Shown here: positions 2,044 to 47,570 of the stretch, in pieces
Layout: every line of letters starts with the position of its first letter
How positions within the stretch are numbered: the first letter of the stretch is position 1
NCBI GenBank assembly: GCA_041665505.1
Contig: JBAYIR010000001.1
Coordinates: 19,108 to 83,107 of the forward strand
DNA length: 64,000 bases
Source: Patescibacteria group bacterium
Lineage (GTDB): Bacteria > Patescibacteriota > Patescibacteriia > UBA1558 > GWA2-36-10
Direction of reading: 5' to 3'
Notes under the pieces: model-generated
Told to the model about the DNA's origin: nothing
Databases searched by the model: none
Seen by the model: only the letters and a program-made list of their open reading frames with translations
Translations under genes and position numbers: made by a program

Positions 2044-2106
2044 CATAAGGTTAGTCGTTATTTGTCAACCGAAGGAACTGAAACTGAAGGAAAGAGAGGA
2101 CTAGTC

Positions 2107-3633
2107 ATGTTGATAGTAGGAATCGAACCCAAAGCTCCTGGACTGCATATGTTTACGCAAGTGTACACGCCGCGGGCGGGTCTACCGAGGTTACTCCCCC
2201 GAGCTCAGGAACTCGGACATCAGTGCGTCATCTTCTGTGAAGAGTTGCGTCAATCGCAGCTCGATTGGACTCTGGTCTCCAAGGCGGATTTGATCTTGGT
2301 CTCGTCAACCACCTCGACTGCGCCACGCGCTTACCAGCTCGTGGCCAAGGCCAAAAGGCTGAATCCGCGGGCGACTATACTTGGTGGAGGACCTCATTTC
2401 ACTTTCGAGTGTCAGGAGGCGCTGGAGAGTGGTATTGATTTCGTCTTCCGTCATTGGGCAGACAGCAGTTTCTTTGAGTGGCTGGAGTGGTATCAGTCAC
2501 TTGAGGATACTCAGGTGATTAGCGGTGACGATTTGCGTCGCCTGTCAGAAATTGGCGGTTTGGCCTTCATGACGGGCAATCAAGTCCACAAGACGGCTAT
2601 GCCCAGGCAGGTTGACCCTGATTCATGGGCCACGCCTGATTTCCGCTTGGTGACTGGCTACAAGCCAAGAACTCTGACAATGATCACCAGTGAAGGATGT
2701 GATCACAAGTGTGAGTTCTGCTCGGAGTGGACCATGCACGGTGGAAAGTACCGTGTTCGTTCAGCTGAGAGAGTCTTGGCAGACCTTGTTTTTTACCGAA
2801 GAATCTATGGGAGGATTCCGATTTTCTTCGGAGATGACAACTTGGCTGCTGACCAGAAAGACAGCACTGGTCAGGTGACTGTTTCTGGTGTTGATCGTTT
2901 GACACAGCTGTGTCAGATGATCATTGATCATGGTTTGCAGGGTTCATATTCTGGTCAGGTTCGTCTGGCCTTGGCTGACCATCCGGGGGTCTTGGCTTTG
3001 ATGAGCCGAGCGGGCTTTAATCGAGCCTGTATTGGCTATGAATCGATAAACCCCGACAATGCCCAAGCTACGGGCAACAAGCTGGAGTTTGCTCGCATGG
3101 GTGAACAGACAGCTATGTTTCACAAGCATGGTATTGCTGTCCATGCGATGTGGATCATGGGTTTTGATCCTGATACTTTGGCCACCATCGCTGAAACAGT
3201 GAAGGCGGCCATCAACTGGCGGATTGAGACCAACCAATTTATGGTTTTGGTGCCAATTCCTGGTTCACCACTGAGGAAACGTCTAGAAAGAGAGGGGAGA
3301 ATCATTCATTCGGCGGGTTGGGATAAATACGACGGACACCATGTCGTATTCTACCCCAAACTGATGAAGTCTTGGGAACTCCAGGCAGCAGTGATGCTCA
3401 GAGCTATGCCCAAGGTCTACAACCTGGGACAAACCTTGGGCATTTACCTGTCTAGCAATTTCCGTACCTTGGTGAGATGGATTAACCGTCGGGCGCCTCA
3501 TCCTGGTATTGAGTTTCAGAGTCATACCATCACTCTGGTCTTGCGAGTGGTGGGACGTAACATGGTTAGGCGGGTTGGTAAACCCGCTAGAGACTACTTC
3601 GAGGAACTGAGGAGGTCGCCTACCAACAGGTAG
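2107..3633 (+). CDS. B12-binding-domain radical SAM protein (class B rSAM), compositionally foreign (~55% GC)
   Basis: N-terminal B12-binding-like region (ILVSSTTSTAPRAY...ILGGGPHFT) and a radical SAM CxxxCxxC box (SEGCDHKCEFCSE). A strong SD lies 8 nt before the ATG at 2107. The ORF track's TTG start at 2062 lacks an SD. Confidence 0.75.
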   Translation: MLIVGIEPKAPGLHMFTQVYTPRAGLPRLLPRAQELGHQCVIFCEELRQSQLDWTLVSKADLILVSSTTSTAPRAYQLVAKAKRLNPRATILGGGPHFTFECQEALESGIDFVFRHWADSSFFEWLEWYQSLEDTQVISGDDLRRLSEIGGLAFMTGNQVHKTAMPRQVDPDSWATPDFRLVTGYKPRTLTMITSEGCDHKCEFCSEWTMHGGKYRVRSAERVLADLVFYRRIYGRIPIFFGDDNLAADQKDSTGQVTVSGVDRLTQLCQMIIDHGLQGSYSGQVRLALADHPGVLALMSRAGFNRACIGYESINPDNAQATGNKLEFARMGEQTAMFHKHGIAVHAMWIMGFDPDTLATIAETVKAAINWRIETNQFMVLVPIPGSPLRKRLEREGRIIHSAGWDKYDGHHVVFYPKLMKSWELQAAVMLRAMPKVYNLGQTLGIYLSSNFRTLVRWINRRAPHPGIEFQSHTITLVLRVVGRNMVRRVGKPARDYFEELRRSPTNR

Positions 3634-5319: not shown

Positions 5320-5707
5320 TGGTGGAGATGAGGGGTATCACACCCCTGTCTGGCAAATGTCCTAATACACTTCTACAAGCTTATTCAATTTTGTGGTTTA
5401 AATTGTTGGCTCTAAAATTGACAAAAAACCAACAACCGAGCTAGTTTTTTTGTTTCAAAATACTTGTACTAACTCCAGGTATTTCTAGCCTGAAAAATAT
5501 GGCGCCTCTAGTCAAGCTCAGGCGGCTTAGCCTAGAAACGGTCGAGGCACAATTTAGGCCAAGACTGGTGCAAAGCTAGGAACTTTGAAAAGTTCTTTTA
5601 CTTTGGCAAAAGTGTTTTCTGCACTTATTTTAGTGTAATTTTTTACGAGATCACGAACTCAACTTGCTATATATCACTTCATCTGACGTCAAATAAAAAA
5701 CATCCCC
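5320..5707 (-). ncRNA. ssrA: tmRNA (SsrA)
   Basis: Minus-strand 5' end is GGGGAUG...UUUGACG. The 3' end has GGAC, a T-arm, CAUCUCC-A-CCA, and an acceptor stem with a G3:U70 wobble (Ala identity). A candidate tag ORF (AENTF...FAPVLA*) ends in TAA. The gene sits 4 nt downstream of the smpB stop. Confidence 0.65.
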
Positions 5708-8872: not shown

Positions 8873-9415
8873 ATGGCTAGTGAAGAAAAAAAAGCTGGAG
8901 GGCTAGATAATAATCAAGAAGAAAAATACGTTCGCCCTAGTTGGGATGAATATTTTATGGAAATGGCTAGGACTGCTTCCAAACGCGCTACTTGCAGTAG
9001 AGGGCGTAGTGGTTCAATCGCTGTCAAAGATAATCAACTGCTGGTGACTGGCTATGTGGGAGCACCTAAAGGCTTTCCAGACTGTGATGAAGTAGGACAT
9101 TTGATTAAAAAAACTGATCATGGTGATGGGACTATCAGTAGCCATTGTGTCCGGACTATTCACGCTGAGCAGAACTTGATAACTCAAGCAGCCAAAAGAG
9201 GAGTTTCTTTAGATGGAGCAACTATTTATTGTCGGATGGTACCTTGCCATGTTTGTTGTATGTTGCTAGTCAATTGTGGTATCAAAAGGGTAGTAGCGGA
9301 AAGACATTATCATCAAGGTGGCGTGGATATTTTGAAACAAGCCGGCATACAACTAGATGTTTTGTATGAAGATGAAGTCCAAGCTTATGAAGGTATGACT
9401 GAGAAAAAAGAATAA
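8873..9415 (+). CDS. dCMP deaminase (ComEB/cytidine-deoxycytidylate deaminase family)
   Basis: HAEQN...PCHVCC zinc-binding motifs, and the gene lies in a thymidylate pathway context. Confidence 0.8.
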   Translation: MASEEKKAGGLDNNQEEKYVRPSWDEYFMEMARTASKRATCSRGRSGSIAVKDNQLLVTGYVGAPKGFPDCDEVGHLIKKTDHGDGTISSHCVRTIHAEQNLITQAAKRGVSLDGATIYCRMVPCHVCCMLLVNCGIKRVVAERHYHQGGVDILKQAGIQLDVLYEDEVQAYEGMTEKKE

Positions 9416-9416
9416 T

Positions 9417-9995
9417 ATGATAAAAAAAGCTAAAAATCTTAAGCGAGATCAAAAAGGTAAAATAATTTTGGGTTTTACTGGACTGCCAGCTTGTGGTAAA
9501 GGTACGGCAGCCAAATATTTAGCCGCCAAATATGGAGCCGGTACTTTTCGTTTTTCTACTTCTATGAGAGATTTGCTAGATCGTTTGTATTTACCACAAT
9601 CTAGAGAAAATATGAGCGCCATTTCTCGTATTACTCGTCAAGAATTTGGCCAAGATTTGTATGCCAAAGTTATGGCCGGCGATGTGGGTAAAGCAAAATA
9701 TGATATAGTAGTTGTAGATGGTATACGTAGATTGGATGATGTTAAAGAATTAAAAAAACTAGCTAGCTTTAAATTAGTAGCTATTGAAGTGGATATGAAA
9801 ACTCGTTGGCAGAGACTTAGAATGAGAGGAGAAAATCCAGATGACGCTACTAAGACCTGGAAAGAATTTCAGAAAGATCATAAATTGGAAACCGAGCTTA
9901 CTATCCCACCAGTGATGAAGCAAGCAGATTTTTTTATTAATAATAATGGGTCTTTAAAGGATTTTTATAAACAACTTGATAAATTGGTAAAATAA
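9417..9995 (+). CDS. P-loop nucleotide/nucleoside monophosphate kinase-like protein (dNMP kinase/AAA-family); substrate unknown
   Basis: Walker [13 protein letters not shown]. It is a small (192 aa) P-loop NTPase embedded between dCMP deaminase and thyA. Confidence 0.5.
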
Positions 9996-10002
9996 TAAGT
10001 AT

Positions 10003-10899
10003 ATGAAGCAGTATTTAGAGCTACTTCAAAAAATAATGGATGAAGGAGTGGACAAAAGTGATAGAACTGGTGTTGGCACCAGGAGTGTTTTTGGTGCTCA
10101 AGCTAGATTTGATTTGTCCGAAGGCTTTCCGCTTCTTACTACCAAGAAAATGTTTTTGAAAGGAATTATTCATGAGCTTATTTGGTTTGTTAGAGGTGAC
10201 ACTAATATTAAATATTTGGTGGACAATGGTGTTAAAATCTGGAATGAGTGGCCTTACCAAAAATATCTTGAAGCAAATTCTTTGACTGAAAAATTTCCTA
10301 AATACAGCCCAGAGTGGGAAGAAAAGATGCAGGAGTTTATAGACAATATCAAAAATGATGAAGAGTTCGCCAAGAAGTGGGGTAATCTCGGGCCAGTTTA
10401 TGGTAAACAGTGGAGGGACTTTGGCGGAGTGGATCAACTTAAAGACGTGATAGAAAGATTGAAAACTAATCCCAATGATAGGCGTATGATAGTGTCAGCC
10501 TGGAATCCACCAGAAATTCCCCAGATGGCTTTGCCACCTTGTCACCTGCTTTATCAATTTTATGTAGCTCAAGGCAAATTATCTCTACAGATGTATCAAA
10601 GAAGCTGTGATACTTTTTTGGGAGTGCCGTTTAATATTGCTTCCTATTCACTGCTACTGATGATGGTCGCTCAGGTAGTTGGACTGGAGGCCGGAACATT
10701 TGTGCATGTCTACGGCGATCTTCATATTTATAGTAATCATTTTGATCAGGTCAAAGAGCAATTATCACGTCAGCCAAGAAAATTGCCACAAATGTTAATA
10801 AATCAGAGTATTAAAAATATTGAAGATTTTAAATTTGAAGATTTTGTTTTGGAAGGTTATGACCCTCATCCTACAATTAAAGCACCAATTGCTGTATAA
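10003..10899 (+). CDS. thyA: Thymidylate synthase
   Basis: RTGVGT.S.FG...F......FPL.TTKK...I.HEL.WF..G.TN and the active-site PPCH..YQFYV. Confidence 0.9.
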
Positions 10900-10902
10900 A
10901 AT

Positions 10903-11352
10903 ATGAATAAATCAATAAAAAATAATTTGATAATAGAATTACATGTCCCAGATTTGGATATTGTAAAATCATTTTATTCTAAATTAGGTTTTGATATTAC
11001 AATGTATGATAAATCAAATGAAAAGGAGTTAGGTTATTTAACAATGACCAGAAACGATGAATTAGGAAATACAATGTTAAATTTTTACGGTGGGGATGAT
11101 AGAATATATAATCAAGCATATTTTAAGCAATTTTCCAAAGATACAAAAAGAGCTTATGCTACTGAAATAACTATTTGTGTTAAAGATATAGATAATATTT
11201 ATGATTTAGCTACTACTCACCTTAAAAAATTTGTGGTAAGAGAATTACAAGAAAAAGAGGATCATGGACATAAATGGAAAGATTTTAGGATGGAAGATCC
11301 TTTTGGATTTTATTTAAGATTTACAGAATTATTAGATTGGGGACAAAAATAA
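10903..11352 (+). CDS. VOC/glyoxalase-bleomycin resistance fold protein, hypothetical
   Basis: ELHVPDLDIVKSFYSKLGF is a typical VOC N-terminal beta-alpha-beta start. The gene is inserted between thyA and folA. Confidence 0.4.
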   Translation: MNKSIKNNLIIELHVPDLDIVKSFYSKLGFDITMYDKSNEKELGYLTMTRNDELGNTMLNFYGGDDRIYNQAYFKQFSKDTKRAYATEITICVKDIDNIYDLATTHLKKFVVRELQEKEDHGHKWKDFRMEDPFGFYLRFTELLDWGQK

Positions 11353-11356
11353 TATT

Positions 11357-11845
11357 ATGAATAAACCAATAATTAGTTTAATAGCCGCCATAGCTAGTGA
11401 TCGTGGTATAGGATATCAAAATAAATTGCTTATCCATTTGCCACCCGACTTGAAGCATTTTAAAGAAGTTACTTCTAGACATATGGTCATAATGGGCCAG
11501 ACTACTTATCAATCTATGGGCAAAGCATTACCCAATAGAGAAAATATAGTTTTAACCAAAGATCAAAATTTTATGGTGGCTGATGCTAAAGTAATGTATT
11601 CTATTGAAGAAGCACTGGAATATGCTAATAATTCTATAGAAGAAGAAATATTTTTTATAGGTGGAGCATCTATTTATGCTCAGTCTATAAAGTATGCGGA
11701 TAAATTATATTTGACTTTGATTGACGCTACTTATCCAGCTGATACTTACTTTCCAGATTATAGCGAATTTAAAAATATAATATCAGAGTCAGATGTCCAG
11801 GAATACAATGGTGTTAAATTTAAATACTTAGAATTAACTAAATGA
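11357..11845 (+). CDS. folA: Dihydrofolate reductase
   Basis: ISLIAA.A..RGIG..N.L....P.DL.HFK..T....VIMG..T..S....LP.R.NIVL. Confidence 0.85.
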   Translation: MNKPIISLIAAIASDRGIGYQNKLLIHLPPDLKHFKEVTSRHMVIMGQTTYQSMGKALPNRENIVLTKDQNFMVADAKVMYSIEEALEYANNSIEEEIFFIGGASIYAQSIKYADKLYLTLIDATYPADTYFPDYSEFKNIISESDVQEYNGVKFKYLELTK

Positions 11846-12264
11846 TTATAAAAGCAAAAAAATTATATATAGATGCGCAGTTGCCACAGATGATGAAAGA
11901 AGGCGATGCAGCCATGGATTTTTATAGTTATAAAGATTATGAATTAAGTCCAGGAGAAAAAGTCATAGTGGAGACCGGAGTGGCTATAGCTATACCGCGT
12001 GGCTATTGGGGTAATGTCAGAGACAGGAGCGGCTTAGCCGCCAAACATAGTCTTCATACTATGGGGGGTGTTTTTGATTCTAATTATCGTGGTGAAGTGC
12101 AGATTGTTTTAATCAATTTAAGCCAAGAAATTTATAATATAAAAAAAGGTGACCGAATTTGTCAGATGATTATAGAGCGTCACGAAGATTTAGAAGTGGT
12201 AGAAGTAGAACAGTTAGACGAGACAAATAGAGGTGAGGAGCGTTTTGCTTCTAGTGGGTATTAA
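11842..12264 (+). CDS. dut: dUTP diphosphatase
   Basis: The RSGLA.KH......GV.DS.YRGE and GDRI.Q motifs. The gene overlaps the folA stop by 4 nt. Confidence 0.85.
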   Translation: MIIKAKKLYIDAQLPQMMKEGDAAMDFYSYKDYELSPGEKVIVETGVAIAIPRGYWGNVRDRSGLAAKHSLHTMGGVFDSNYRGEVQIVLINLSQEIYNIKKGDRICQMIIERHEDLEVVEVEQLDETNRGEERFASSGY

Positions 12265-12280
12265 ATAATATTACTCGTAT

Positions 12281-12329
12281 CCTGAGACGACCGCTCCCCG
12301 CTAGCGCGGACAGTCGCGTCTGGCTCAGG
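12281..12329 (+). terminator. GC-rich imperfect palindrome between dut and tmk (terminator or attenuator-like hairpin; no clear T-run)
   Basis: cctgagacgaccgctccccgctagcgcggacagtcgcgtctggctcagg. Confidence 0.35.
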
Positions 12330-12344
12330 TTACTCAATATAAAT

Positions 12345-13022
12345 ATGGCTAAAGGAAAATTCATAGTTATAGAAGGAGGAGATGGATCGGGGAAAACTAC
12401 CCAGTTTAATCTCCTTAAAGAAAAATTACTAGCTGATGGTCATCAGCTAGAGACTGTTGATTTTCCTCAATACGGCCAGCCATCAGCAGTCTTGGTAGAA
12501 AAATATCTTAATGGTGATTTTGGTAGCGCCAAAGAAGTAGGTGCTTATCGAGCTAGTATTTTCTACGCTGTTGATAGGTATGAGGCTTCTTTTCGGATGA
12601 AAGAATGGCTAAGTGAAGGAAAAATTGTTTTGGCCAATCGCTATGCCACTTCCAATATGGTCCATCAAGCTGGCAAAATAAAAGATACTCTAGAGCGGGA
12701 TAAATTTTTAAATTGGCTAGATGAATTGGAATTTGGCATTTTTGATATTCCAAGACCAGACCTAGTATTTTTTATGAATATTTCGGCTGATATTTCCCAA
12801 AATTTAGCCCTTCAGAAAAATGCTCGGCACGATAATATTAAATCAAAAAATGATATTCATGAAAATGATTTGGGACATTTAGAAGACGCTTTAGAGGCTG
12901 GTAACTATGTGGCCAAAAAATATAACTGGGAAATAATAAATTGTGATGATGGTAGTGGACAAATGAGAAGTATTGATGATATTCACAATGAGGTTTGTAA
13001 TAAAATCAAAAAATATATATAG
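12345..13022 (+). CDS. tmk: Thymidylate kinase
   Basis: FIVIEGGDGSGKTTQ P-loop with DRY and lid motifs. Confidence 0.9.
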   Translation: MAKGKFIVIEGGDGSGKTTQFNLLKEKLLADGHQLETVDFPQYGQPSAVLVEKYLNGDFGSAKEVGAYRASIFYAVDRYEASFRMKEWLSEGKIVLANRYATSNMVHQAGKIKDTLERDKFLNWLDELEFGIFDIPRPDLVFFMNISADISQNLALQKNARHDNIKSKNDIHENDLGHLEDALEAGNYVAKKYNWEIINCDDGSGQMRSIDDIHNEVCNKIKKYI

Positions 13023-13029
13023 TTAAGCT

Positions 13030-14541
13030 ATGGCTAAATACGAAACAATTATAGGCTTAGAAATTCATTTACAACTCAAGACCAAGAGTAAGATGTTTTG
13101 CAGTTGTTCTAATGATTCAGAAGGCCAAGAACCAAATACTTTAGTTTGTCCTATTTGCTTGGGACATCCAGGGACATTGCCTAGCGTCAATAAAGAAGCT
13201 ATCAAGCTGGCTATGATGATGTCTTTGGCCTTGAATTGTAAAATAAATAAGCAATCAAAGTTTGATAGAAAAAATTATTTTTATCCAGATTTGCCCAAAG
13301 GCTATCAAATATCTCAATTTGACGAACCATTAGCTCATGACGGACATTTGGTAATTGAAGTAGATAATCAGACTTGGAGTATTGGTATAGAAAGATTACA
13401 TTTAGAAGAAGATGCCGCCAAAAATATTCATAAAGGCGATAAGACTTTGGTAGATTTTAATCGGGGTGGTACACCGCTAGCTGAGATTGTGACCAAACCA
13501 GATTTTAAAAGTCCCAAAGAGACCAAAGAATTTTTACAACAACTCAGGCTGATTGCTCGTTATCTAGATGTTTCTGAGGCGGACATGGAAAAAGGTCATT
13601 TGAGATGTGATGCCAATATATCACTAAGACCTTTAGGTGACCATGATCTTTATCCTAAAACAGAAATAAAAAACCTCAATTCATTTAAGGCTGTGGAAAA
13701 AGCTTTGATGTTTGAAGAAAAAAGACAAGCCAAACTTTGGGATGATAAGCAGGCTCCGCAAGTGACAGAGACTCGCGGCTGGGATGAAGATAAAGAGGAA
13801 ACAGTACTACAGCGCACCAAAGAAGGCTCATCTGATTATAGATATTTTCCAGAACCAGATTTGCCGCCAATTATTATTTCAGAAAAATTGATGCAAACTG
13901 TAGTTTCTACCATGGTAGAGCTACCATACAATAAAAAAGATAGATTTGTTAAAGAATATAATCTTAAAACAGAGGATGCTTGGGTTTTGGTCAATCAAAG
14001 AGTCTGGGCCAATTATTTTGAAGAAGTGATGTCTGATCTCAGGGCTTGGCTTTTTAAAGCCGAAGGCCTTTCTGAAGATAGTGATGAAGCTAGCCAACTG
14101 TGGGCAGGTAAAAAAGAAAAATTATCAAAGTTAACTTTTAATTGGATAAGTAGTGAATTGTTTGCTTTGATTGATAATAATTTTGATATTAAAAATCTTA
14201 AAATTAGCGCTGAAAATATGGCAGAGTTTATTAGTTTGATTTATAAGCAAACTATCAATAGCTCCGCTGGTCAAGTAATACTGAAAGAAATGTTTAATGG
14301 GGCCGATGATGATCCTAGCCATATTGCCGAAAGACTAAATTTGGCTCAAATTGATGATGATAGTAGTTTAGAGGATATAGCTATCGAGGTAGTGATGTCT
14401 AATCCAGAGCAAGTGGCAGAATATAAAGCTGGTAAAATTGCAGTATTAAAGTTTTTGGTGGGACAATTTATGAAAGAGAGTAAAGGCAAAGCCAATCCAC
14501 AAAAGGCAGAAGAAATTTTGAAAAAGAAATTAAAGGATTAA
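13030..14541 (+). CDS. gatB: Asp-tRNA(Asn)/Glu-tRNA(Gln) amidotransferase subunit B
   Basis: YE.IIGLEIH.QL.T.SK.FC.C...........CP.CLG.PG.LP. Confidence 0.9.
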   Translation: MAKYETIIGLEIHLQLKTKSKMFCSCSNDSEGQEPNTLVCPICLGHPGTLPSVNKEAIKLAMMMSLALNCKINKQSKFDRKNYFYPDLPKGYQISQFDEPLAHDGHLVIEVDNQTWSIGIERLHLEEDAAKNIHKGDKTLVDFNRGGTPLAEIVTKPDFKSPKETKEFLQQLRLIARYLDVSEADMEKGHLRCDANISLRPLGDHDLYPKTEIKNLNSFKAVEKALMFEEKRQAKLWDDKQAPQVTETRGWDEDKEETVLQRTKEGSSDYRYFPEPDLPPIIISEKLMQTVVSTMVELPYNKKDRFVKEYNLKTEDAWVLVNQRVWANYFEEVMSDLRAWLFKAEGLSEDSDEASQLWAGKKEKLSKLTFNWISSELFALIDNNFDIKNLKISAENMAEFISLIYKQTINSSAGQVILKEMFNGADDDPSHIAERLNLAQIDDDSSLEDIAIEVVMSNPEQVAEYKAGKIAVLKFLVGQFMKESKGKANPQKAEEILKKKLKD

Positions 14542-14544
14542 AAA

Positions 14545-16092
14545 ATGCCAAGAAGAGAAGTTTGGCGTAAAAATTTTGAAATTTATAGGATGCCGATCAT
14601 CATAACTGGTCCAGCAGTTTTTAGTGCTTTGTCTGATCAGAAAAAAGTAATAGGTAAAAATATTTTAAAAGATTTTTTACTAGTAGGTCAGGCTTATGAT
14701 TTAGTGGGTGCCTACATACCTCTTAAACAGTTAAGGGAATTTATTGAAGCTATTTTACATACTATAAAAACAAAGCCAAATTTTATATTTCATCTACAAA
14801 GAGATGGTCTAAAAGATGTGTCTGAACTTTTTAAATTTGTTAGAAAAAATAGAAGAACGGATTTTGGTAAAATGAGTAGTATAGAGTTGGTATATTTTCA
14901 TAATAAATTACAGAGCTATTTTTATAAAGCGCAGGGCAGACTTACTCTAACAACTTGGTTTGTAGATTCGGATGGGGAGGATTTGACCAAGTTTTTATGG
15001 GGGATGGTAGAGAATAAAATAAAAGAAAGTAATTTGAATTTAAATCCAGCTGAGGTTTTTTCAATACTTACCACTCCAGATAAAGCTAGTATGTCCTTGA
15101 AAGAAGAGATAGAAGCTTTAAGAATTTTATTACTTATAAAAGCTGATAAAAGTGCTAGAAAATTATTTAGCCATAAAGATCCAAAATATATAGAAAATAA
15201 TCTTGATAGAATAGAAAGTAAATTAAAAAATAAAATAATTAGCCATTATAAAAAATGGCTCTGGGTGCCTTATACTTATATTGGTCCTGCTTATGAGCTG
15301 GATTATTATTTGACAATGTGGTCAGGTTTACTCCGTCAAAAAGTAAATGTCAATAAAAATTTAAAAATACTTGAATCTCAGATTAGAAATGATAGAAAAT
15401 TACGTTTTAATTTTATTAAAAAATTACAACTTAATACTAAAGAAAAGAAATATTTTGATATTGCAGCAGATATTATTTATTTAAAATCATATCGGAAAGA
15501 TGCTTGGTTTTATTACTGCTATCTTTTGGAGTTTTTCCATAAAGAGCTAGCTAAACGATTAAATTTATCTTTACAGCAAGTAAGAATGATGACGCCAGAT
15601 GAATTAAATATAGCTATAAGAAAGGGTAGTTTTGATTCCAATATTTTAAATCAAAGATTTATAAAAAGCGCTTATATTTTTAGAGGTTTAAAATCAAAAG
15701 TTTATGCTGGACGTGAAGCTGAAAAATTTTTGCTTAGTCAAAATATAGAAAAAGAGAAAGTTGTAAAATTAGATATGTTAAAGGGTACTTCAGCTTACCC
15801 TGGCCATGCTAGATCTTATGTAAAGATAGTAAATTTACCAGAAGAGATGCATAAAATGAAGCAGGGGGATATTATGGTAGCCAGAACTACTTTTCCATCA
15901 CTAGTACCAGCTATGAAAAAGGCTGCTGCTATTGTCACCAATGATGGAGGAATAACTTGTCATGCCGCTATAGTTGCTAGAGAATTAAAAATACCTTGTG
16001 TAGTAGGCACTAAGATAGCTACTAAAATTTTGAAAGACGGAGATAAAGTAGATGTAGATGCTGCTAAGGGTATAGTAAAGAAATTAAAATAG
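14545..16092 (+). CDS. Protein with a C-terminal PEP-utilizing-enzyme mobile (phosphohistidine) domain; the N-terminal ~420 aa have no recognisable family
   Basis: The C-terminus reads GDIMVARTTFPSLVPAMKKAAAIVTNDGGITCHAAIVARELKIPCVVG, matching the GGxTSHAAIxAREhGIPxVVG motif. No ATP-grasp domain is present. Confidence 0.6.
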   Translation: MPRREVWRKNFEIYRMPIIITGPAVFSALSDQKKVIGKNILKDFLLVGQAYDLVGAYIPLKQLREFIEAILHTIKTKPNFIFHLQRDGLKDVSELFKFVRKNRRTDFGKMSSIELVYFHNKLQSYFYKAQGRLTLTTWFVDSDGEDLTKFLWGMVENKIKESNLNLNPAEVFSILTTPDKASMSLKEEIEALRILLLIKADKSARKLFSHKDPKYIENNLDRIESKLKNKIISHYKKWLWVPYTYIGPAYELDYYLTMWSGLLRQKVNVNKNLKILESQIRNDRKLRFNFIKKLQLNTKEKKYFDIAADIIYLKSYRKDAWFYYCYLLEFFHKELAKRLNLSLQQVRMMTPDELNIAIRKGSFDSNILNQRFIKSAYIFRGLKSKVYAGREAEKFLLSQNIEKEKVVKLDMLKGTSAYPGHARSYVKIVNLPEEMHKMKQGDIMVARTTFPSLVPAMKKAAAIVTNDGGITCHAAIVARELKIPCVVGTKIATKILKDGDKVDVDAAKGIVKKLK

Positions 16093-16166: not shown

Positions 16167-16195
16167 TTGACAAAAAATGTTGAATAGAGTATTAA
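16167..16195 (+). promoter_or_regulatory. Sigma70-like promoter TTGACA-17-TATTAA for GC-rich cassette B
   Basis: Direct motif read, followed by an AAGGAGA Shine-Dalgarno at 16233-16239. Confidence 0.45.
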
Positions 16196-16245
16196 TAAAT
16201 AGATTTGTTCCCATCACTGTTTCACCCTGGACAAGGAGACCTGAG

Positions 16246-16698
16246 TTGGAGACTGACAGCAAAAAAGCCAAGAAACCCCTGGTCGAACTCGACATATCGG
16301 TCAGGTATGGCCGCCTGACTGAAAAGCCGGCGCCGACTTATCAGGGCCAGGCGGTCGGCGAGGTTCTCAAGGACTTGCTCACCTCAGGGCCTATTTCGCG
16401 GACTTCTTCTGACATCAGTGTCAGTGTTGACTTCGGTCACAAGATGGTCCATCTGGTCCGTATGCGACTGCTTCGTTCGTCCAGCTTCGTCGGCGCATTC
16501 GGCGTCATCACGGTGGTACTTCGTCCCTTGGCCGTTGGTTTCTGCCATGGCCACGACCAGACCTTCCAGTTTTGCCCGGATGATCGTCTGATTGGCCAGC
16601 GTGGGCAGATCATCAAGCTGACGCTGGGTTACCCCGAATTCAAAAGCGAGACCTGGCACAGGGAGAAGCAGTCACAGGAAGTCAAGCAAGCTTCCTAG
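16246..16698 (+). CDS. Hypothetical protein (~150 aa) of GC-rich cassette B (~58% GC). The TTG start is inferred from the SD, and the coding strand is not fully certain.
   Basis: The ORF frame is continuous with the ORF-track ORF 16177..16698. AAGGAGA lies 6 nt upstream of a TTG. No family was recognised. A 91-aa antisense ORF (16384..16659) also exists. Confidence 0.35.
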   Translation: METDSKKAKKPLVELDISVRYGRLTEKPAPTYQGQAVGEVLKDLLTSGPISRTSSDISVSVDFGHKMVHLVRMRLLRSSSFVGAFGVITVVLRPLAVGFCHGHDQTFQFCPDDRLIGQRGQIIKLTLGYPEFKSETWHREKQSQEVKQAS

Positions 16699-21867: not shown

Positions 21868-22905
21868 TCACATGCGTTTGGGCAGTTTGAGTTCTATACC
21901 GCCCTCTGGCATGCCACCACCACTGCAACAGTTGGAAGCAGGGATGATCAAGAGCTGGCCTCGATGACCTTGTCCTTTTTGTTCGAAGGGACGCGATTCA
22001 TTTACTTGCCACACCGTTGCATTTGTTGGTTTTTCGCTACGTAGCCAGCTGAGAGCTGGAAAGCCATCTCCACATTTCCAGTTAGCGAAATGTTCGGCTA
22101 TGCTGGTTTCATCAAAATAGAGTGCCGGATCTTGAATGTGCAGAGAGATATGACGCATGTGATTTGGTCTGAACTTGTCACTGCTAGTGCCTTCCCGCCA
22201 GCAGGGTTGACCACGAAAAGCTCTAGCCGGGTAGACTTTTGCGTATCCGTTGTCAGGATGGAAAACAATCACCCAGTTGGTTGACAATATCTTCGTGCCG
22301 TCATCACTGACAGCTACTGCCTGGTTGAAGTCCTTTTCAGCCTTACTGCGAGTAGCTGCAATTTTTTGATCCATGAGTTGGCACATGATATCTCGCGACT
22401 GCTGCCACTTGTTACCACTGCGGTACCAGCTACCATAAAGGCAGTAGAGCAAGCCATGGGGCCAGAAGCCTTCACTGATGCCATCATTTCTCTGATTGAA
22501 TGTCAGGAACATCCGATCGTCTTCCTTACCGCTGACAATTATCAAACAACATGCCGTTCCTACATATAGTTTGACGTCACGGAGTCGGTGCATTATAGCC
22601 AGCAGTGGTTCTAGTTTTTCAAGCCATTCCATCATACTATTAGATTCCACTTTAGGGTCAAAGGGGAACCACATTGGATCAGCACAGTCGAGTAGCAATT
22701 TTCTCATATCATGCTCTTCGACTACGTCACAGAGCAAGGTAGATCCCAGATATTTGGACCACATCTCATGATCTGGGTGAGGGGATTGCCGCTCTTGTTT
22801 AAGCCAATCAGCGATATCGCGACGGCGAAACAGGTTGTCTTCAGCAAAGCGATTGAGCACGAAATCCTTACGGATTTCAGACAGGGGTTTAGTGAAAAGA
22901 GCCAT
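21868..22905 (-). CDS. Hypothetical 345-aa protein of cassette C (~48% GC, Cys/Trp-rich); no family recognised
   Basis: An AGGAGG SD sits 8 nt upstream of ATG (MALFTKPLSEIRK...). This is shorter than the ORF-track ORF, whose first Met lacks an SD. The promoter TTGACA-N18-TGATTAAAT lies at 22965-22996. Confidence 0.6.
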   Translation of the reverse strand: MALFTKPLSEIRKDFVLNRFAEDNLFRRRDIADWLKQERQSPHPDHEMWSKYLGSTLLCDVVEEHDMRKLLLDCADPMWFPFDPKVESNSMMEWLEKLEPLLAIMHRLRDVKLYVGTACCLIIVSGKEDDRMFLTFNQRNDGISEGFWPHGLLYCLYGSWYRSGNKWQQSRDIMCQLMDQKIAATRSKAEKDFNQAVAVSDDGTKILSTNWVIVFHPDNGYAKVYPARAFRGQPCWREGTSSDKFRPNHMRHISLHIQDPALYFDETSIAEHFANWKCGDGFPALSWLRSEKPTNATVWQVNESRPFEQKGQGHRGQLLIIPASNCCSGGGMPEGGIELKLPKRM

Positions 22906-22964
22906 GGGTATCAACCTCCTAAAGTTGGTGCAGTAGTTGTCTAAACTACCGCACATACCCACAG

Positions 22965-22996
22965 TCATTTAATCAGAATATTACATTATTTGTCAA
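22965..22996 (-). promoter_or_regulatory. Sigma70-like promoter (TTGACA plus an extended -10 TGATTAAAT) for cassette C
   Basis: Direct motif read on the minus strand. Confidence 0.4.
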
Positions 22997-34026: not shown

Positions 34027-34389
34027 TTATTTTTTTCTATCAGCGCTAGATTTGCTTTTGGCAGAAGGTTTTACTTGGCTGTTTTCTTTTATTTCAGCTT
34101 TGATTTTTTCTTTTTCCTTAGCAATTTTTCTTTCGCTGGCTTTAGCTTTTTTGACGGCTTTGCCTTTTCTAGTTTTAGCCACCTTTTCTTTTTGCTCAGC
34201 GATTTTTTTGAATCTATCTACACGACCAGCTGTATCTACTAATCTTTCTTTTCCAGTATAAAAAGGATGGCAGTTTGAGCAAATTTCTACATGGATTTCT
34301 TTGACAGTAGAACCTACTGTAAATGAATTGCCACAAGCGCAAACTACTTTAGCGTCAGCATGATAATTTGGATGGATATCTTTTTTCAT
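34027..34389 (-). CDS. rpmE: 50S ribosomal protein L31 with an ~50-aa Lys-rich C-terminal extension
   Basis: [10 protein letters not shown]...CACGNSF...[10 protein letters not shown] is the L31 core. It is followed by a KEK-rich tail. Confidence 0.85.
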
Positions 34390-34464
34390 ATGTTTTTTCT
34401 AATTTGGCATCTGGGATTTAATCCGAGATCAAAAATTAATACCCCAATAAAATAGCAGATTATC

Positions 34465-34518
34465 AAAAAAAAGTCAAGAATAAAGACAATACCCCGCCGC
34501 ACTTGATGCGCGGCGGGG
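34465..34518 (-). terminator. Rho-independent terminator ending the cassette D operon
   Basis: ccccgccgc-acttgat-gcgcggcgggg, with a T-run on the minus strand. Confidence 0.55.
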
Positions 34519-34551
34519 CTGAAATTTATCGTTGACCACATTGGTGGTGGT

Positions 34552-34821
34552 CTAGTCGATCCTGAAAACTTGTGCATATTCTTCGTTCGGTAGTATGGTC
34601 AACAATTCCATAGGAATCATGGAATCTATGGCCATGCCCTTCATACGAACAGGCACTTCCAGCTTGAAGCTGGTAACGAGGTTGTCCTTGCCCAGCCGCA
34701 TCTCAACTACCTGCGGTGGACCCAGCATAGTGCCTTCAGCACCAGCCGGCCAGGCCTTGAAGCTGACAGCCAGCCGTATCGGCTGGTGCCAGAATGGTTC
34801 TGTGATGGCTCGAACTAGCAT
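34552..34821 (-). CDS. Hypothetical 89-aa protein (cassette D, third gene)
   Basis: GAAAGGAAAG SD lies 5 nt upstream of ATG. GC-rich. No family recognised. Confidence 0.5.
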   Translation of the reverse strand: MLVRAITEPFWHQPIRLAVSFKAWPAGAEGTMLGPPQVVEMRLGKDNLVTSFKLEVPVRMKGMAIDSMIPMELLTILPNEEYAQVFRID

Positions 34822-34853
34822 CTTGGCTTTCCTTTCGTTTGCAGTGGCGGGGC

Positions 34854-35111
34854 TTAGTCATCAAAATCATCGTAGTACGGATTGACGAACATCAAGGGCC
34901 CCCCGAAAGAGGGGCACAGTTCGATCCGTTCGACCTTTATTCCCTGAAGCTGTTCCCACGGTGTTTGACGGGGCCGAGCCTCCTCCTGAGCCTCGAGTTC
35001 CTTCACGCGCCTCACGATGCATTGGCCCAAGATGTTTGCGATCTGCAATCGCATTGCATTCAGCTCATCAACTTCGGTTTCGGTAACATGTTTTGCTCCT
35101 TGATCCGGCAT
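34854..35111 (-). CDS. Hypothetical 85-aa acidic protein with a C-terminal YYDDFDD (cassette D, second gene)
   Basis: GGAAGGGG SD before the ATG. The start codon lies 24 nt after the upstream gene's stop. Confidence 0.5.
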   Translation of the reverse strand: MPDQGAKHVTETEVDELNAMRLQIANILGQCIVRRVKELEAQEEARPRQTPWEQLQGIKVERIELCPSFGGPLMFVNPYYDDFDD

Positions 35112-35136
35112 GTTTCACCCCTTCCGTTTTCGGCAA

Positions 35137-35562
35137 CTAGGCCGGGTCAAACAATTCGACTAGTCCCTCGATCGTGGCTACAAGAGTTTGGAGTCCAGCT
35201 AGAGTGAACATCAGGATTGCAGCCAGGAAACAGCCAAAGGGTAGAGCTAGACCAAACCAGCTCACGCCAATTAGCAGTTCCAGGACGGAGAAGGCGTCTT
35301 TGCTCTGGTCGAGCCTGGAGATAGCGAGAAAAGTCCCACCGGCAACTGACAGAAGTGGCCACCAGGAGTAGTCCAGAGTCATCATCCATCCGGACGTGCT
35401 TATCAGCACCACGGCGATGACTTGCCGGCGTTTGAACATGGGGTGTGAGAAACTGAGTCCCGCGATCATCAGGCTCAGACCCGCCACAACACTATTGTCG
35501 TGGAACATAGCCACAAACAGCATGGCAATGCCAGCTAGGACACTCAGTAGGGCGTTTTTCAT
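35137..35562 (-). CDS. Hypothetical 4-TM membrane protein (cassette D, first gene)
   Basis: GGAAGAAAGGGAAAG SD lies before the ATG (MKNALLSVLAG...). There are four hydrophobic helices. Confidence 0.55.
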   Translation of the reverse strand: MKNALLSVLAGIAMLFVAMFHDNSVVAGLSLMIAGLSFSHPMFKRRQVIAVVLISTSGWMMTLDYSWWPLLSVAGGTFLAISRLDQSKDAFSVLELLIGVSWFGLALPFGCFLAAILMFTLAGLQTLVATIEGLVELFDPA

Positions 35563-35902
35563 GGTCTTTCCCTTTCTTCCTTGGGGGATCACTGGCTTTA
35601 GCCAGACTTTGCTAGGCGTTTTTAGCACACAAGGCTCTATCTACTATGGGCTTTGACCCAATTTACAAATGAATTGTACAGTGACTTTAACAATTAAATA
35701 TAATCTGATTATCAGCCTTTTGTCAATTACTGGCTTAAAGGGCTTGATTTATTTAAATTTTTATGTTAAAGTATTGCTGCTTAATTAATCACAAGTATTT
35801 TCATTGATTATTTGATTAACCTTCCCCAAATAAAAAAAGGGGCATTCAAATAGGAAAATACGGGTAAGCCCGCTTGTAGCGAGGCTAAAGAAAGGAAAAA
35901 AT

Positions 35903-36583
35903 ATGAAATTACCAACACTAGAAGAGTTGTTGAAAAAGGGTGTTCATTTTGGTCACCAGACTTCAAAAAGATATCCAAAAGCCAATGCGTATATTCACAC
36001 CCAACGCAATGGCGTGCATATCATTGATTTGCAAAAAACTGTTAAAGCTTTGGAAGAAGCTTTAGCCTTTGTGGATAAAACTGTAAAAGCTGGCGGCCTT
36101 ATTTTATTTGTCGGATCAAAAAAACAAGCCAAGACTATTGTCAAAGAAGCAGCCGAGAGTTGTGGTATGCCTTATATAGTTGGTCGTTGGTTAGGTGGTA
36201 CTTTTACCAATTTTGAAAATATCGTCAAATTGACTAGAAAACTAGAAAGATTGGAAAGAGAAGAAGAAGATGGTACTTGGGAAATGTATACCAAAAAAGA
36301 GCAAGTTACTTTCAAAAAAGAACTTGATAAACTTATGGAAAACGTTGGCGGTATCAAAAATATGAAAAGTTTACCTAAAGCAATTTTTGTGGTGGATTTG
36401 AAAAAAGAAGGTACTGCTGTCTCAGAAGCCAATAAAATGGGCATCCCAGTTATTGCTTTGGCTGATACCAATGTCAATCCAGAGTTGGCTACTTATCCTA
36501 TCCCAGCCAATGATGATGCTATAAAATCTATTGAAGTAATTACTGATTTGATAGCTGACGCGGTTAGAGGCGCACGTAATTAA
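35903..36583 (+). CDS. rpsB: 30S ribosomal protein S2
   Basis: LL..GVHFGHQT.....KM..YI...RNG.HIIDL.KT. Confidence 0.9.
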   Translation: MKLPTLEELLKKGVHFGHQTSKRYPKANAYIHTQRNGVHIIDLQKTVKALEEALAFVDKTVKAGGLILFVGSKKQAKTIVKEAAESCGMPYIVGRWLGGTFTNFENIVKLTRKLERLEREEEDGTWEMYTKKEQVTFKKELDKLMENVGGIKNMKSLPKAIFVVDLKKEGTAVSEANKMGIPVIALADTNVNPELATYPIPANDDAIKSIEVITDLIADAVRGARN

Positions 36584-45146: not shown

Positions 45147-45266
45147 TTATTGTTACTATGTGTTTTTTTGACAGTTTAATATGTCTAAGTGTTTTGCTCT
45201 ATGAGCAAAAGGTGACAGGCTTTATGCTTGTCTCTAAACCGTCCCTTCAACCTAGGAAAGGAGGAT

Positions 45267-46715
45267 GTGCACGTTTCGCCATATCCTAGTCCATCGGCTT
45301 CACACGCTTCACCAAAACAAACTAGGATGCTTGGTGCATCCAGAATGGAGCTGCAGATGATTACCCGTCAGGACAACCCTAGCATGTCTGCTCAGGCAGA
45401 CGTTATCGTCATTGGTGGGGGCGCCAACGGTGCTCTTATCACCTTTGAGCTCGCCAAGCGTGGCTACCAAGTCATCACCCTGGAAAAGGGTGCACTTGGT
45501 AACGGATCCAGCAGTCGTTCCGCGGCTTGTATCCGCGCTCAGTTCGGCGATCCTCGTAACGTCCTCGGCATGGTGTATGCCGAGTGGTTCTTCGAGAACT
45601 TCTACTCGATCTTGGGTGTTCCCGAAGAGGAGCAGAATGAGTGGCTGTTTGAGCAAAACGGCTACCTGTTCCTCTATGAGGATCCTGGTCAGATCGAAGA
45701 TTCTGCCAAGAGCAAGGCTTCTGCCAAGGCATGGCTCGAGGCACTGAAAGCTGCTCACATGCAACAGAAGCTTGGTTTGCCGGTTGAGATTCTCGATCCC
45801 TCTACTGTCCACGCCCGCTACCCGCACATCAACCCTGAACTTTTGATCGGCGCGACCTTCTGCCCCACCGACGGTTTCCTCAACCACGACCTCATCTACC
45901 TCAGGGGATTCGAGATGGCCCAGCGGCACTACGGTGCCCAGGTCTTCACGAACACCGAGGTGATCGGCGCTACTCGTGCCAAAGACGGCACGATCACTAC
46001 TCTGCACACCACAAGTGGTGACTTCTCGGCCAAGTGGATTGTCAACGCGACCAATGCGTGGGCGCCACGGCTGAGCAAGTTGCTGGGCGGCATGGAACTG
46101 CCCATCACACCCTTTAAGCGGTATTTGTACTGGGTACAGCCGCACTCGTCCGTGTTTTCGGACGATAGTTGGAAGAAACTACCCTTCACCATCTTCGGGA
46201 TGGGTCCGGACAGAGGATCCTACTGTCGGCCGCATCACAACGAGTTGATGTACGGTTGGGCTCACGAAGCTGAACCTGAACCGCAGTTCAGCGACGAAGA
46301 CCAGGACAGGATCGGTGCTGGTTTCCATCCCGATTCGGCAAGTGGCGACCGAGACTACTGGCTGGAGTTCCGTCTCAACGTCAACGACTTCTCGGAGTTG
46401 TTGGCCAACACTGGTCGGGCTCGGGCAACTGCCGGGTACTACGGCCAGACGCCGGATCATCAGCCAATCATCGATGTGGATACGCAAGTGTCCAACCTGA
46501 TCCATGCGGTCGGATTCTCTGGCCACGGCTTGATGATGTCTCCGGTGACTGCTCAGGTGGTCGCCGCCCTCGTCGATGGCCGGGGCGAGATCGTGAACAG
46601 GCAGATTTGTCTGCCACCGATGTTCAGGCCCGAGATGACCAAGCTCATGCTCGATTGCAGTCACTTCTCGGCCACGAGGGACTTCTACGCTCAGAAGGAA
46701 GGAGCTTACATCTAG
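45267..46715 (+). CDS. FAD-dependent oxidoreductase, DAO family (glycine/sarcosine/D-amino-acid oxidase-like); GC-rich (~58%)
   Basis: DVIVIGGGANGALITFELAKRGYQVITLEKG is a GxGxxG Rossmann motif, and the C-terminus has a GFSGHGLM motif. A GTG at 45267 lies 4 nt after AGGAGG. Alternative starts are 45228 (ORF track) and the ATG at about 45357. Confidence 0.75.
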   Translation: MHVSPYPSPSASHASPKQTRMLGASRMELQMITRQDNPSMSAQADVIVIGGGANGALITFELAKRGYQVITLEKGALGNGSSSRSAACIRAQFGDPRNVLGMVYAEWFFENFYSILGVPEEEQNEWLFEQNGYLFLYEDPGQIEDSAKSKASAKAWLEALKAAHMQQKLGLPVEILDPSTVHARYPHINPELLIGATFCPTDGFLNHDLIYLRGFEMAQRHYGAQVFTNTEVIGATRAKDGTITTLHTTSGDFSAKWIVNATNAWAPRLSKLLGGMELPITPFKRYLYWVQPHSSVFSDDSWKKLPFTIFGMGPDRGSYCRPHHNELMYGWAHEAEPEPQFSDEDQDRIGAGFHPDSASGDRDYWLEFRLNVNDFSELLANTGRARATAGYYGQTPDHQPIIDVDTQVSNLIHAVGFSGHGLMMSPVTAQVVAALVDGRGEIVNRQICLPPMFRPEMTKLMLDCSHFSATRDFYAQKEGAYI

Positions 46716-46941: not shown

Positions 46942-47271
46942 ATGCAGGCCGACAAAATTATCGGTGAGACCACCCGTGTGTTCCCTCGACTGCGCTGCGT
47001 GGCTATCAAGCTGGCACCGAACGACACGGTTCTCAGGGAGGGGATGACCGTTTCCTTCCATCGCGAGGCTAGCGATATGGGAGCTTTGGGCTTCCATGAC
47101 AGCACCCACAAGATCACCTCGATCGAGGTCAACCGGACGCCGGTGGCTGAGGCAACTCATCAGGATGGTATCTGTGCTGTTTGGATCGGTGGTTCGGTAG
47201 ATGATTTGCCGCCTCGTCGCTGCATCGTCTCGGTCATCAACGACCGGGCACCTGATCAGCCCACGACTTGA
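46942..47271 (+). CDS. Hypothetical 109-aa protein, partner of the FAD oxidoreductase
   Basis: AGGAGG lies 9 nt before ATG (MQADKIIGETTRV...). GC-rich. No family recognised. Confidence 0.55.
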   Translation: MQADKIIGETTRVFPRLRCVAIKLAPNDTVLREGMTVSFHREASDMGALGFHDSTHKITSIEVNRTPVAEATHQDGICAVWIGGSVDDLPPRRCIVSVINDRAPDQPTT

Positions 47272-47312: not shown

Positions 47313-47389
47313 GCGCCGTTAGCTCAATTGGTTAGAGCACTAGGCTTACAAGCTAGAGGTTGAGGGTTCAAGTCCCTCACGGCGTACCA
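47313..47389 (+). tRNA. tRNA-Val(TAC)
   Basis: Manual cloverleaf. Acceptor GCGCCGT/ACGGCGT (G1:U72), D-arm TAGCTCAATTGGTTAGAGC, anticodon loop CTTACAA, T-arm GAGGGTTCAAGTCCCTC, and an encoded CCA. Confidence 0.75.
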
Positions 47390-47400
47390 CACAATTTGGT

Positions 47401-47476
47401 GGGGTTATAGCTCAATTGGCAGAGCATCAGACTCAAAATCTGAATGTTAGGAGTTCAAATCTCCTTAACCCCACCA
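47401..47476 (+). tRNA. tRNA with anticodon CAA and a short (5-nt) variable arm. The overall sequence resembles tRNA-Trp(CCA) with C35 changed to A.
   Basis: Manual cloverleaf. Acceptor GGGGTTA/TAACCCC, anticodon stem TCAGA/TCTGA, loop CTCAAAA, variable arm ATGTT, T-arm AGGAGTTCAAATCTCCT, discriminator A, encoded CCA. Confidence 0.65.
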
Positions 47477-47494
47477 CTGTTCTTCTCTACAGAA

Positions 47495-47570
47495 CCCTAT
47501 ATAGCTCAACTGGACAGAGCCCCTGGATTTCTTCTCAGGAGCCGTGGAGGTTCGAATCCTCCTATAGGAG
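47495..47570 (+). tRNA. Non-canonical tRNA-like gene (Arg-TCT-like layout) with an 8-nt anticodon loop, a 6-nt variable region, a C1:A72 mismatch and no encoded CCA; possibly a pseudo- or recoding tRNA
   Basis: A canonical D-arm (TAGCTCAACTGGACAGAGC) and T-arm (GGAGGTTCGAATCCTCC) are present. The anticodon stem CCTGG/TCAGG encloses ATTTCTTC. Confidence 0.4.

Follow-up and report, generated by a model that had tools for sequence, protein, structure and literature searches.

Small genomic islets are among the closest described counterparts of the element reported here. Genomic islands and gene transfer, the latter mostly among Patescibacteria themselves, have been documented in Patescibacteria, and the islets combine an atypical composition, absence from the nearest relative, accessory genes and a streamlined recipient (PMC12455944). 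The element, cassette D, shares these traits. It is a compact three-gene unit on the minus strand of a stretch of 64,000 nucleotides (nt), the window to which all coordinates below refer, from a Patescibacteria group bacterium (lineage GWA2-36-10; assembly GCA_041665505.1, contig JBAYIR010000001.1, positions 19,108 to 83,107). Cassette D differs from the islets in being very small (1.23 kb) and in having no integrase, tRNA or repeat signature. It is also a fully insulated promoter-operon-terminator unit whose products are all orphans, and it is GC-richer than its host, whereas the islands are usually AT-richer. To judge from its layout, its composition and comparisons with related genomes, cassette D is very probably a real, horizontally acquired and expressed operon.

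Integron gene cassettes offer a second comparison. They too are short promoter-proximal accessory units that often encode orphans, and their tandem arrangement has a counterpart on contig L006, described below. Unlike them, cassette D has its own promoter with 11 of 12 consensus positions, ends in a perfect 12-bp terminator stem with a T-tail and not in an attC site, and has no integrase within 10 kb on either side. Compact accessory operons and short operons headed by a small multi-transmembrane (multi-TM) protein are also known from type II toxin-antitoxin systems and phage holin/antiholin cassettes, respectively.

Cassette D contains the genes g1 (35137-35562), which encodes a 141-amino acid (aa) polytopic membrane protein counted from its ATG, g2 (34854-35111), which encodes an 85-aa acidic protein, and g3 (34552-34821), which encodes an 89-aa protein predicted with low confidence to be beta-rich. 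In the NCBI annotation, which treats the genome as a metagenome-assembled one, g2 and g3 are the hypothetical proteins WCV71_00320 and WCV71_00315. The three open reading frames (ORFs) do not overlap, and a purine-rich Shine-Dalgarno (SD) sequence lies 5-9 nt before each ATG (GGAAGAAAGGGAAAGACC-ATG, CGGAAGGGGTGAAAC-ATG and CGAAAGGAAAGCCAAG-ATG). An alternative GTG start at 35628, the one used in the Joint Genome Institute (JGI) gene call, would lengthen g1 to 163 aa; the ATG is preferred because the GTG has no SD. The cassette promoter (35726 to 35697, minus strand) consists of TTGACA, an 18-nt spacer and TATATT, and is kept in a second strain, L001. It is followed by a 5' leader of about 125 nt (35563-35690, minus strand) that is AT-rich at first and GC-rich from about 35650. 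The part of the leader from 35563 to 35628 shares 97% identity with L001. A permissive Rfam scan of the leader returned nothing relevant, and its folding z-score of -1.3 does not mark it as unusually structured. An intrinsic terminator (34519 to 34491, minus strand) with a 12-bp perfect stem (10 GC pairs), a 5-nt loop and a T-rich tail closes the unit. Together these signals would make up a transcription unit of about 1.23 kb with a near-consensus sigma-70 promoter, three SD-led ORFs and a strong intrinsic terminator. A model-generated reading made from the letters without database searches, hereafter the sequence-only reading, had proposed three minus-strand genes each with its own SD, spacers of 24-32 nt and a GC hairpin terminator at the operon end. 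The genes, their SDs and the terminator can be read directly in the sequence. The compact spacing also stands, with measured values of 25 and 32 nt.

The composition of cassette D sets it apart from its surroundings and identifies it as foreign. GC content is 52.3% at 34461-35660 and 35.0% across the whole window, and GC at third codon positions (GC3) is 0.59-0.63 in g1, g2 and g3 as against 0.22-0.30 in host genes. On the left the cassette is flanked by rpmE (34027-34389, minus strand), the first gene of an rpmE-prfA-prmC run, and on the right by rpsB (35903-36583, plus strand), the first of an rpsB-tsf-pyrH run. The rpmE promoter (34477 to 34449, minus strand; TTGACT, 17-nt spacer, TATTTT with an extended TG) is intact just downstream of the cassette terminator, which would shield rpmE-prfA-prmC from cassette read-through. 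In a synteny survey that used RpsB as anchor and one genome per species, the divergent order prmC-prfA-rpmE / rpsB-tsf recurred in about 20 Patescibacteria. This synteny is shared by L007, the closest reference genome (RpsB 74% identical), whose rpmE-rpsB spacer is only 225 nt long, has 22% GC and is devoid of the cassette. Because the synteny is shared and the L007 spacer is empty, cassette D can be read as an insertion of about 1.23 kb. Its extent against the empty L007 site is estimated at 34491-35722, with a fair alignment of the right flank (35722-35868, score 86) and a weak one of the left (score 32). The sequence-only reading had placed the operon between rpmE and rpsB without damage to either, and the surviving rpmE promoter and the empty spacer of L007 bear this out.

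In a set of 20 Patescibacteria genomes the length of the rpmE/rpsB spacer varies between 107 and 3307 nt. In L021 (CAZGYI010000019.1, 4738-5998) the same spacer holds another GC-rich (50-59% GC) ORF of 213 aa in a genome of 37% GC. The variable length and this separate insert imply that the site accepts insertions repeatedly, as an apparent hotspot. Within 10 kb on either side of cassette D there is no integrase, transposase or tRNA, and no flanking direct or inverted repeats around it or the other islands of the window rose above shuffles. The mobility signature expected of a genomic islet is thus absent by both the 10-kb gene check and the flanking-repeat test. Sequence comparison would still place cassette D with the small horizontally acquired genomic islets of Patescibacteria, by its composition and its absence from the relative's site though not by mobility signature. 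With neither a recombinase nor a tRNA nor a clear target-site duplication present, insertion probably took place through recombination of taken-up DNA at a tolerant spacer. The cassette and rpmE promoters, at the two edges of the insert, share the composite TTGAC-N7-TGATAATC. The looser pattern TTGAC-N6-8-TGATAATC occurs only twice in the 64 kb, whichever strand is read, once in the cassette promoter (35726 to 35697) and once in the rpmE promoter (34477 to 34449). The shared composite may be the trace of a promoter duplication at insertion that has since diverged; the local alignment alone is not significant (p ~0.07).

The cassette locus was found in four further assemblies. It is 100% identical in L003 (an ENA assembly, 350-kb contig) and L005 (a Logan assembly) and 99.9% identical in L004 (a JGI contig), and these three come from different samples. 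The source samples comprise JGI 3300037810, SRR6484324, SRR22216448 and ERZ27249449. L001 (SRR22216448) is a different strain, 93.6% identical, with the same rpsB-cassette junction. The junctions are the same in all five assemblies, which effectively excludes an assembly artefact or chimera. The synonymous divergence (dS) between the window and L001 is 0.17 for g1 and 0.12 for rpsB. On these values both strains inherited the cassette from their common ancestor, and it has diverged together with its flanks. Insertion into the divergent rpmE/rpsB promoter spacer would then have followed the split from the nearest sequenced relative and preceded the divergence of the known strains. The rpsB-proximal spacer, otherwise 99% identical between the strains, carries a 23-nt insertion in L001 (ATCTTTGACCCCCTTCTATAGGG; L001 783-805, after window position 35793).

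Whether the three ORFs are genes at all has to be weighed against their GC-rich setting. In AT-rich genomes a GC-rich block between genes is often a structured RNA, and GC-rich DNA yields long chance ORFs, several overlapping ones of which are listed at this locus. A structured RNA, spurious ORFs or an assembly chimera is nevertheless scarcely credible as an account of cassette D. Rfam scans at gathering and permissive thresholds found no RNA element in the cassette. The codon-position GC pattern is that of coding DNA, and under a codon-usage table built from two Pfam-confirmed GC-rich genes of the window (a B12-binding radical-SAM gene and a DAO-family gene) the annotated frame is the best of six for each of g1, g2 and g3. 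Compared with L001, g1 has 35 substitutions (8% of nucleotides), no indel and no stop, and the encoded variant is 89% identical. Third-position changes are in excess in the annotated frame. The ratio of nonsynonymous to synonymous divergence (omega) of g1 is 0.355 overall, as against 0.085 for rpsB, and is lowest, and below 1, only in that frame. The N-terminus of g2 shows 14 substitutions and an in-frame 3-nt indel relative to L001, with omega 0.43; across comparisons the omega of g2 is 0.36-0.48. Purifying selection thus acts on g1 and at least partly on g2. For g3, which has no diverged copy, the case for a gene is made by the frame test, by its SD and by its place in the operon.

The same comparison bears on the view that cassette D is neutral passenger DNA whose ORFs are intact merely through youth and have no function in the host. 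Its composition has not been ameliorated, its genes are orphans, and both residues 44-90 of g1 and the N-terminus of g2 evolve fast (omega 0.43-0.56). Yet dS has reached 0.17 since the strains split while omega is 0.09 in g1 residues 1-43 and 0.14 in residues 91-141; in the middle hairpin (44-90) it is 0.56. There are no stops or frameshifts, and promoter, SDs and terminator are intact. Patescibacteria genomes are streamlined, which also speaks against the retention of idle DNA. We consider the passenger explanation improbable.

The hydropathy profile of g1 has six short hydrophobic segments arranged as three hairpins, followed by a short and acidic C-terminus. The sequence-only reading had called it a 4-TM protein. 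A polytopic membrane protein it is; with six short segments the count of four is uncertain, and hydropathy allows 4 to 6. That reading had also singled out HdeD/DUF308 as a housekeeping family to check. Unlike those membrane proteins, g1 has no Pfam match to HdeD/DUF308 even at E<=1 and no significant internal hairpin repeats (z-scores 0.9-1.6).

No product of the cassette reaches threshold for any family in Pfam, NCBIfam, PADLOC or PHROGs, and the earlier statement that none belongs to a recognised family therefore holds. In PADLOC only g3 gave a hit, to PDC-M63B (E=0.036, 11 bits), below threshold. A k-mer-seeded search of 5.8 billion proteins returned g1 itself and the L001 variant, g2 itself and a relative, P0004, and for g3 only g3. 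When 1.84 billion representatives were searched exhaustively with a HMMER profile of g2, the matches were g2 itself and P0006. P0006 was rejected as a relative, since its score adds up the contributions of seven tandem repeats. A match of g3 to the PDB entry 'Tet4 Variant' (E=0.007) was likewise discarded as the sum of three repeats, each with an individual E >100. PDB sequence searches with g1 and g2 gave only noise. An AlphaFold2 (AF2) model of g3 from its single sequence has four strands and a predicted local distance difference test (pLDDT) score of 51 and is unreliable; a Foldseek search of PDB with it reached a best E of 1.4, also noise. Scans of IMG/VR and PLSDB with all three proteins and of INPHARED with g2 found no match.

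Two sub-threshold matches carry the label 'holin', namely g1 to phrog_785 (E=0.008, 16.9 bits) and g2 to NF046041, a 'putative holin' (E=0.019, 15.4 bits, curated cut-off 75). Together with the small multi-TM protein that opens this short operon, they recall phage holin/antiholin cassettes, and cassette D could be a holin-like lysis or superinfection-exclusion remnant of a Patescibacteria phage. Such cassettes differ from cassette D in having an endolysin, a phage context, significant family matches and viral relatives. Neither an endolysin nor any other phage gene lies in the cassette or within 10 kb on either side, and neither IMG/VR (for g1, g2 and g3) nor INPHARED (for g2) holds a relative. 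For TM proteins E-values are often too favourable, and g2 lacks hydrophobic character. Nor does g1 end in the charged tail typical of holins; its C-terminus is short and acidic. A phage remnant of this kind seems quite improbable.

More can be said about g2, the only cassette protein with an independent relative. It has an isoelectric point of 4.6 and a long N-terminal helix (residues 11-45). An AF2 model of g2 from a two-sequence alignment shows one long helix at 11-45 with pLDDT >90, leaves the conserved tail unmodelled, and contains no ribbon-helix-helix (RHH), helix-turn-helix (HTH) or AbrB-like DNA-binding fold. The conserved C-terminal peptide follows the pattern TPWEQLQGIKVERIEL.PS..GPLMFVNPYYDD.DD, and the conserved tail reads PLMFVNPYYDDFDD. 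The relative, the g2-like protein P0004, is 62-63% identical and occurs on the contigs L002 and L006; a metagenome scan recovered it on L006 (Ga0172379_10000601, 88 kb). In an alignment of g2 with L002 (141-401), the C-terminal 36 residues are nearly invariant and the N-terminal helix diverges. The dS is 0.20 in the C-terminal half of g2 as against 0.90 in the N-terminal half. This contrast suggests either a recombination breakpoint inside the gene or an extra, nucleotide-level constraint on its 3' half. A 7-bp GC hairpin (34915 to 34898) lies inside the low-dS half. Since L002 and L004 derive from one JGI sample, the bearer of the g2-like gene and that of cassette D are found together.

On both L002 and L006 the g2-like gene comes first in a separate GC-rich unit that likewise has a promoter and a terminator to itself. 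Downstream of it are genes for two paralogous proteins of 69 and 68 aa that are 62% identical to each other; those of L006 have no similarity to g3. A tblastn search with g1, g2 and g3 against all fetched loci matched only the g2 relative in L006; neither g1 nor g3 accompanies it. The trio is found together at one locus in one species-level lineage only (the window, L001 and L003-L005). The sequence-only reading had named absence of the trio elsewhere as a result that would refute a module. With the g2 relative keeping different partners, a conserved three-gene module finds no support in public data, and g2 is a separable component.

On L006 the g2-like cassette belongs to a series of short GC-rich units, each with promoter, ORF and terminator, that follow one another in tandem within AT-rich DNA (9300-14700). 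Pfam identifies a Dcm methylase, an HATPase_c_3 protein and a MerR/TipAS regulator as neighbours, and a Fic protein is named by its sequence motif alone (HPFFDGNGR). MazG-like and PadR genes near these units were named by eye from the sequence.

These features bear on the proposal that cassette D is a toxin-antitoxin or abortive-infection-type module in which g1 is the effector and g2 a neutraliser with a tail that is disordered until bound. Like type II toxin-antitoxin systems it is a compact accessory operon, here of foreign origin, and it encodes a small acidic protein, g2, whose conserved C-terminal region is unmodelled in the monomer, as is typical of many antitoxins. The g2 relative, moreover, sits in a variable region with restriction-modification-like genes and the motif-identified Fic protein. 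Type II systems, however, have two genes and not three, and cassette D has no recognisable toxin and no RHH, HTH or AbrB-like antitoxin fold. PADLOC, Pfam and NCBIfam return no toxin, antitoxin or defence family. Its genes have independent SDs and gaps of 25-32 nt where overlap might be expected, and it is confined to one species, as against the patchy, wide spread usual for toxin-antitoxin systems. The g2 relative occurs elsewhere without g1 and g3, and the unit is not conserved across unrelated genomes. A module of this type is therefore an unlikely explanation. The resemblance to toxin-antitoxin, holin-like or defence modules that had been noted from the sequence found no positive evidence in PADLOC or in the sub-threshold 'holin' matches, and such a reading keeps a low probability.

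What we favour, if only slightly, is that cassette D is an acquired operon whose products jointly form a small membrane-associated accessory complex with a role in conflict, immunity or the cell envelope. The three lineage-restricted proteins would be held by purifying selection. The small polytopic membrane protein g1 would contribute constrained outer helices and a fast-evolving middle hairpin; the acidic g2, a single long helix together with the conserved C-terminal peptide, which probably does not fold alone; and g3 would be a small, probably beta-rich protein. As a modular adaptor, g2 might pair through its variable helix with cassette-specific partners and dock through its conserved acidic tail on a target common to them all. 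Three observations suggest conflict, immunity or cell-envelope interaction and not housekeeping: the middle hairpin of g1 evolves fast, the unit is accessory, and the relative of g2 has the neighbours described above. A conflict or immunity function taken by itself is a tentative suggestion and remains doubtful.

Several results weigh against this explanation. None of the products has a family, fold or defence-system match. The g3 model is unusable at pLDDT 51, and g3 has no diverged copy from which selection could be estimated. At 0.36 overall, omega is much higher in g1 than in rpsB (0.085). The low dS of the g2 C-terminus could reflect recent recombination and not constraint on the protein. 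The defence-like neighbours, finally, belong to the L006 relative and not to the cassette D locus, so that they would amount to weak guilt by association.

Cassette D is not the only GC-rich unit in the window. At least five more, with 48-58% GC and GC3 of 0.49-0.68 in a host of 35% GC, each have a consensus promoter in AT-rich DNA, an SD, a GC-rich coding sequence and a GC hairpin terminator. They comprise the B12-binding radical-SAM gene (2062-3633, plus strand), a 173-aa orphan (16177-16698, plus), a 366-aa orphan (21868-22968, minus), the DAO-family FAD oxidoreductase (45228-46715, plus) and a 109-aa orphan (46942-47271, plus). The last adjoins a cluster of three tRNAs (tRNA-Val, tRNA-Leu and tRNA-Arg; 47313-47570, plus strand), directly downstream of the island formed by the GC-rich DAO gene and the orphan. 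A tmRNA (5320-5707, minus strand; Rfam, 115 bits) also lies in the window. An all-against-all comparison, from which L006 was excluded by an overall GC cut-off, found no protein families common to the GC-rich ORFs of the window and AT-rich related loci. In the left flank of cassette D, the RpmE (L31) protein encoded at 34027-34389 (minus strand) is 120 aa long with a long Lys-rich C-terminal extension; in tblastn only about its first 63-70 residues align to rpmE regions of related Patescibacteria.

The fetched loci include several from Patescibacteria lineages with 52-64% GC. The existence of such GC-rich lineages makes a donor of cassette D within the phylum plausible. A broader interpretation would assign cassette D to a class, so far unrecognised, of GC-rich promoter-ORF(s)-terminator units that are complete in themselves and populate AT-rich Patescibacteria genomes. 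These would occur singly in permissive spacers, as with the at least five others of the window and the L021 insert, and also in tandem, of which L006 is an example. With no recombinase of their own, they would move between lineages that live together, undergo sub-gene recombination of the kind the g2 dS contrast (0.2 versus 0.9) may record, and supply a pool of very fast-evolving small proteins for symbiont-host or phage conflicts. So wide a class is distinctly unlikely on present evidence.

As it stands, cassette D is one more orphan operon acquired by horizontal gene transfer, in a phylum where hypothetical proteins are common. If its proteins act jointly at the membrane of this episymbiont with its reduced genome, they would come into question for lineage-specific host interaction or phage defence, a largely unexplored part of Patescibacteria biology. 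With several insulated GC-rich cassettes in 64 kb, the window would offer a concrete example of how streamlined symbionts may gain foreign genes, and express them, with none of the customary mobile-element machinery.

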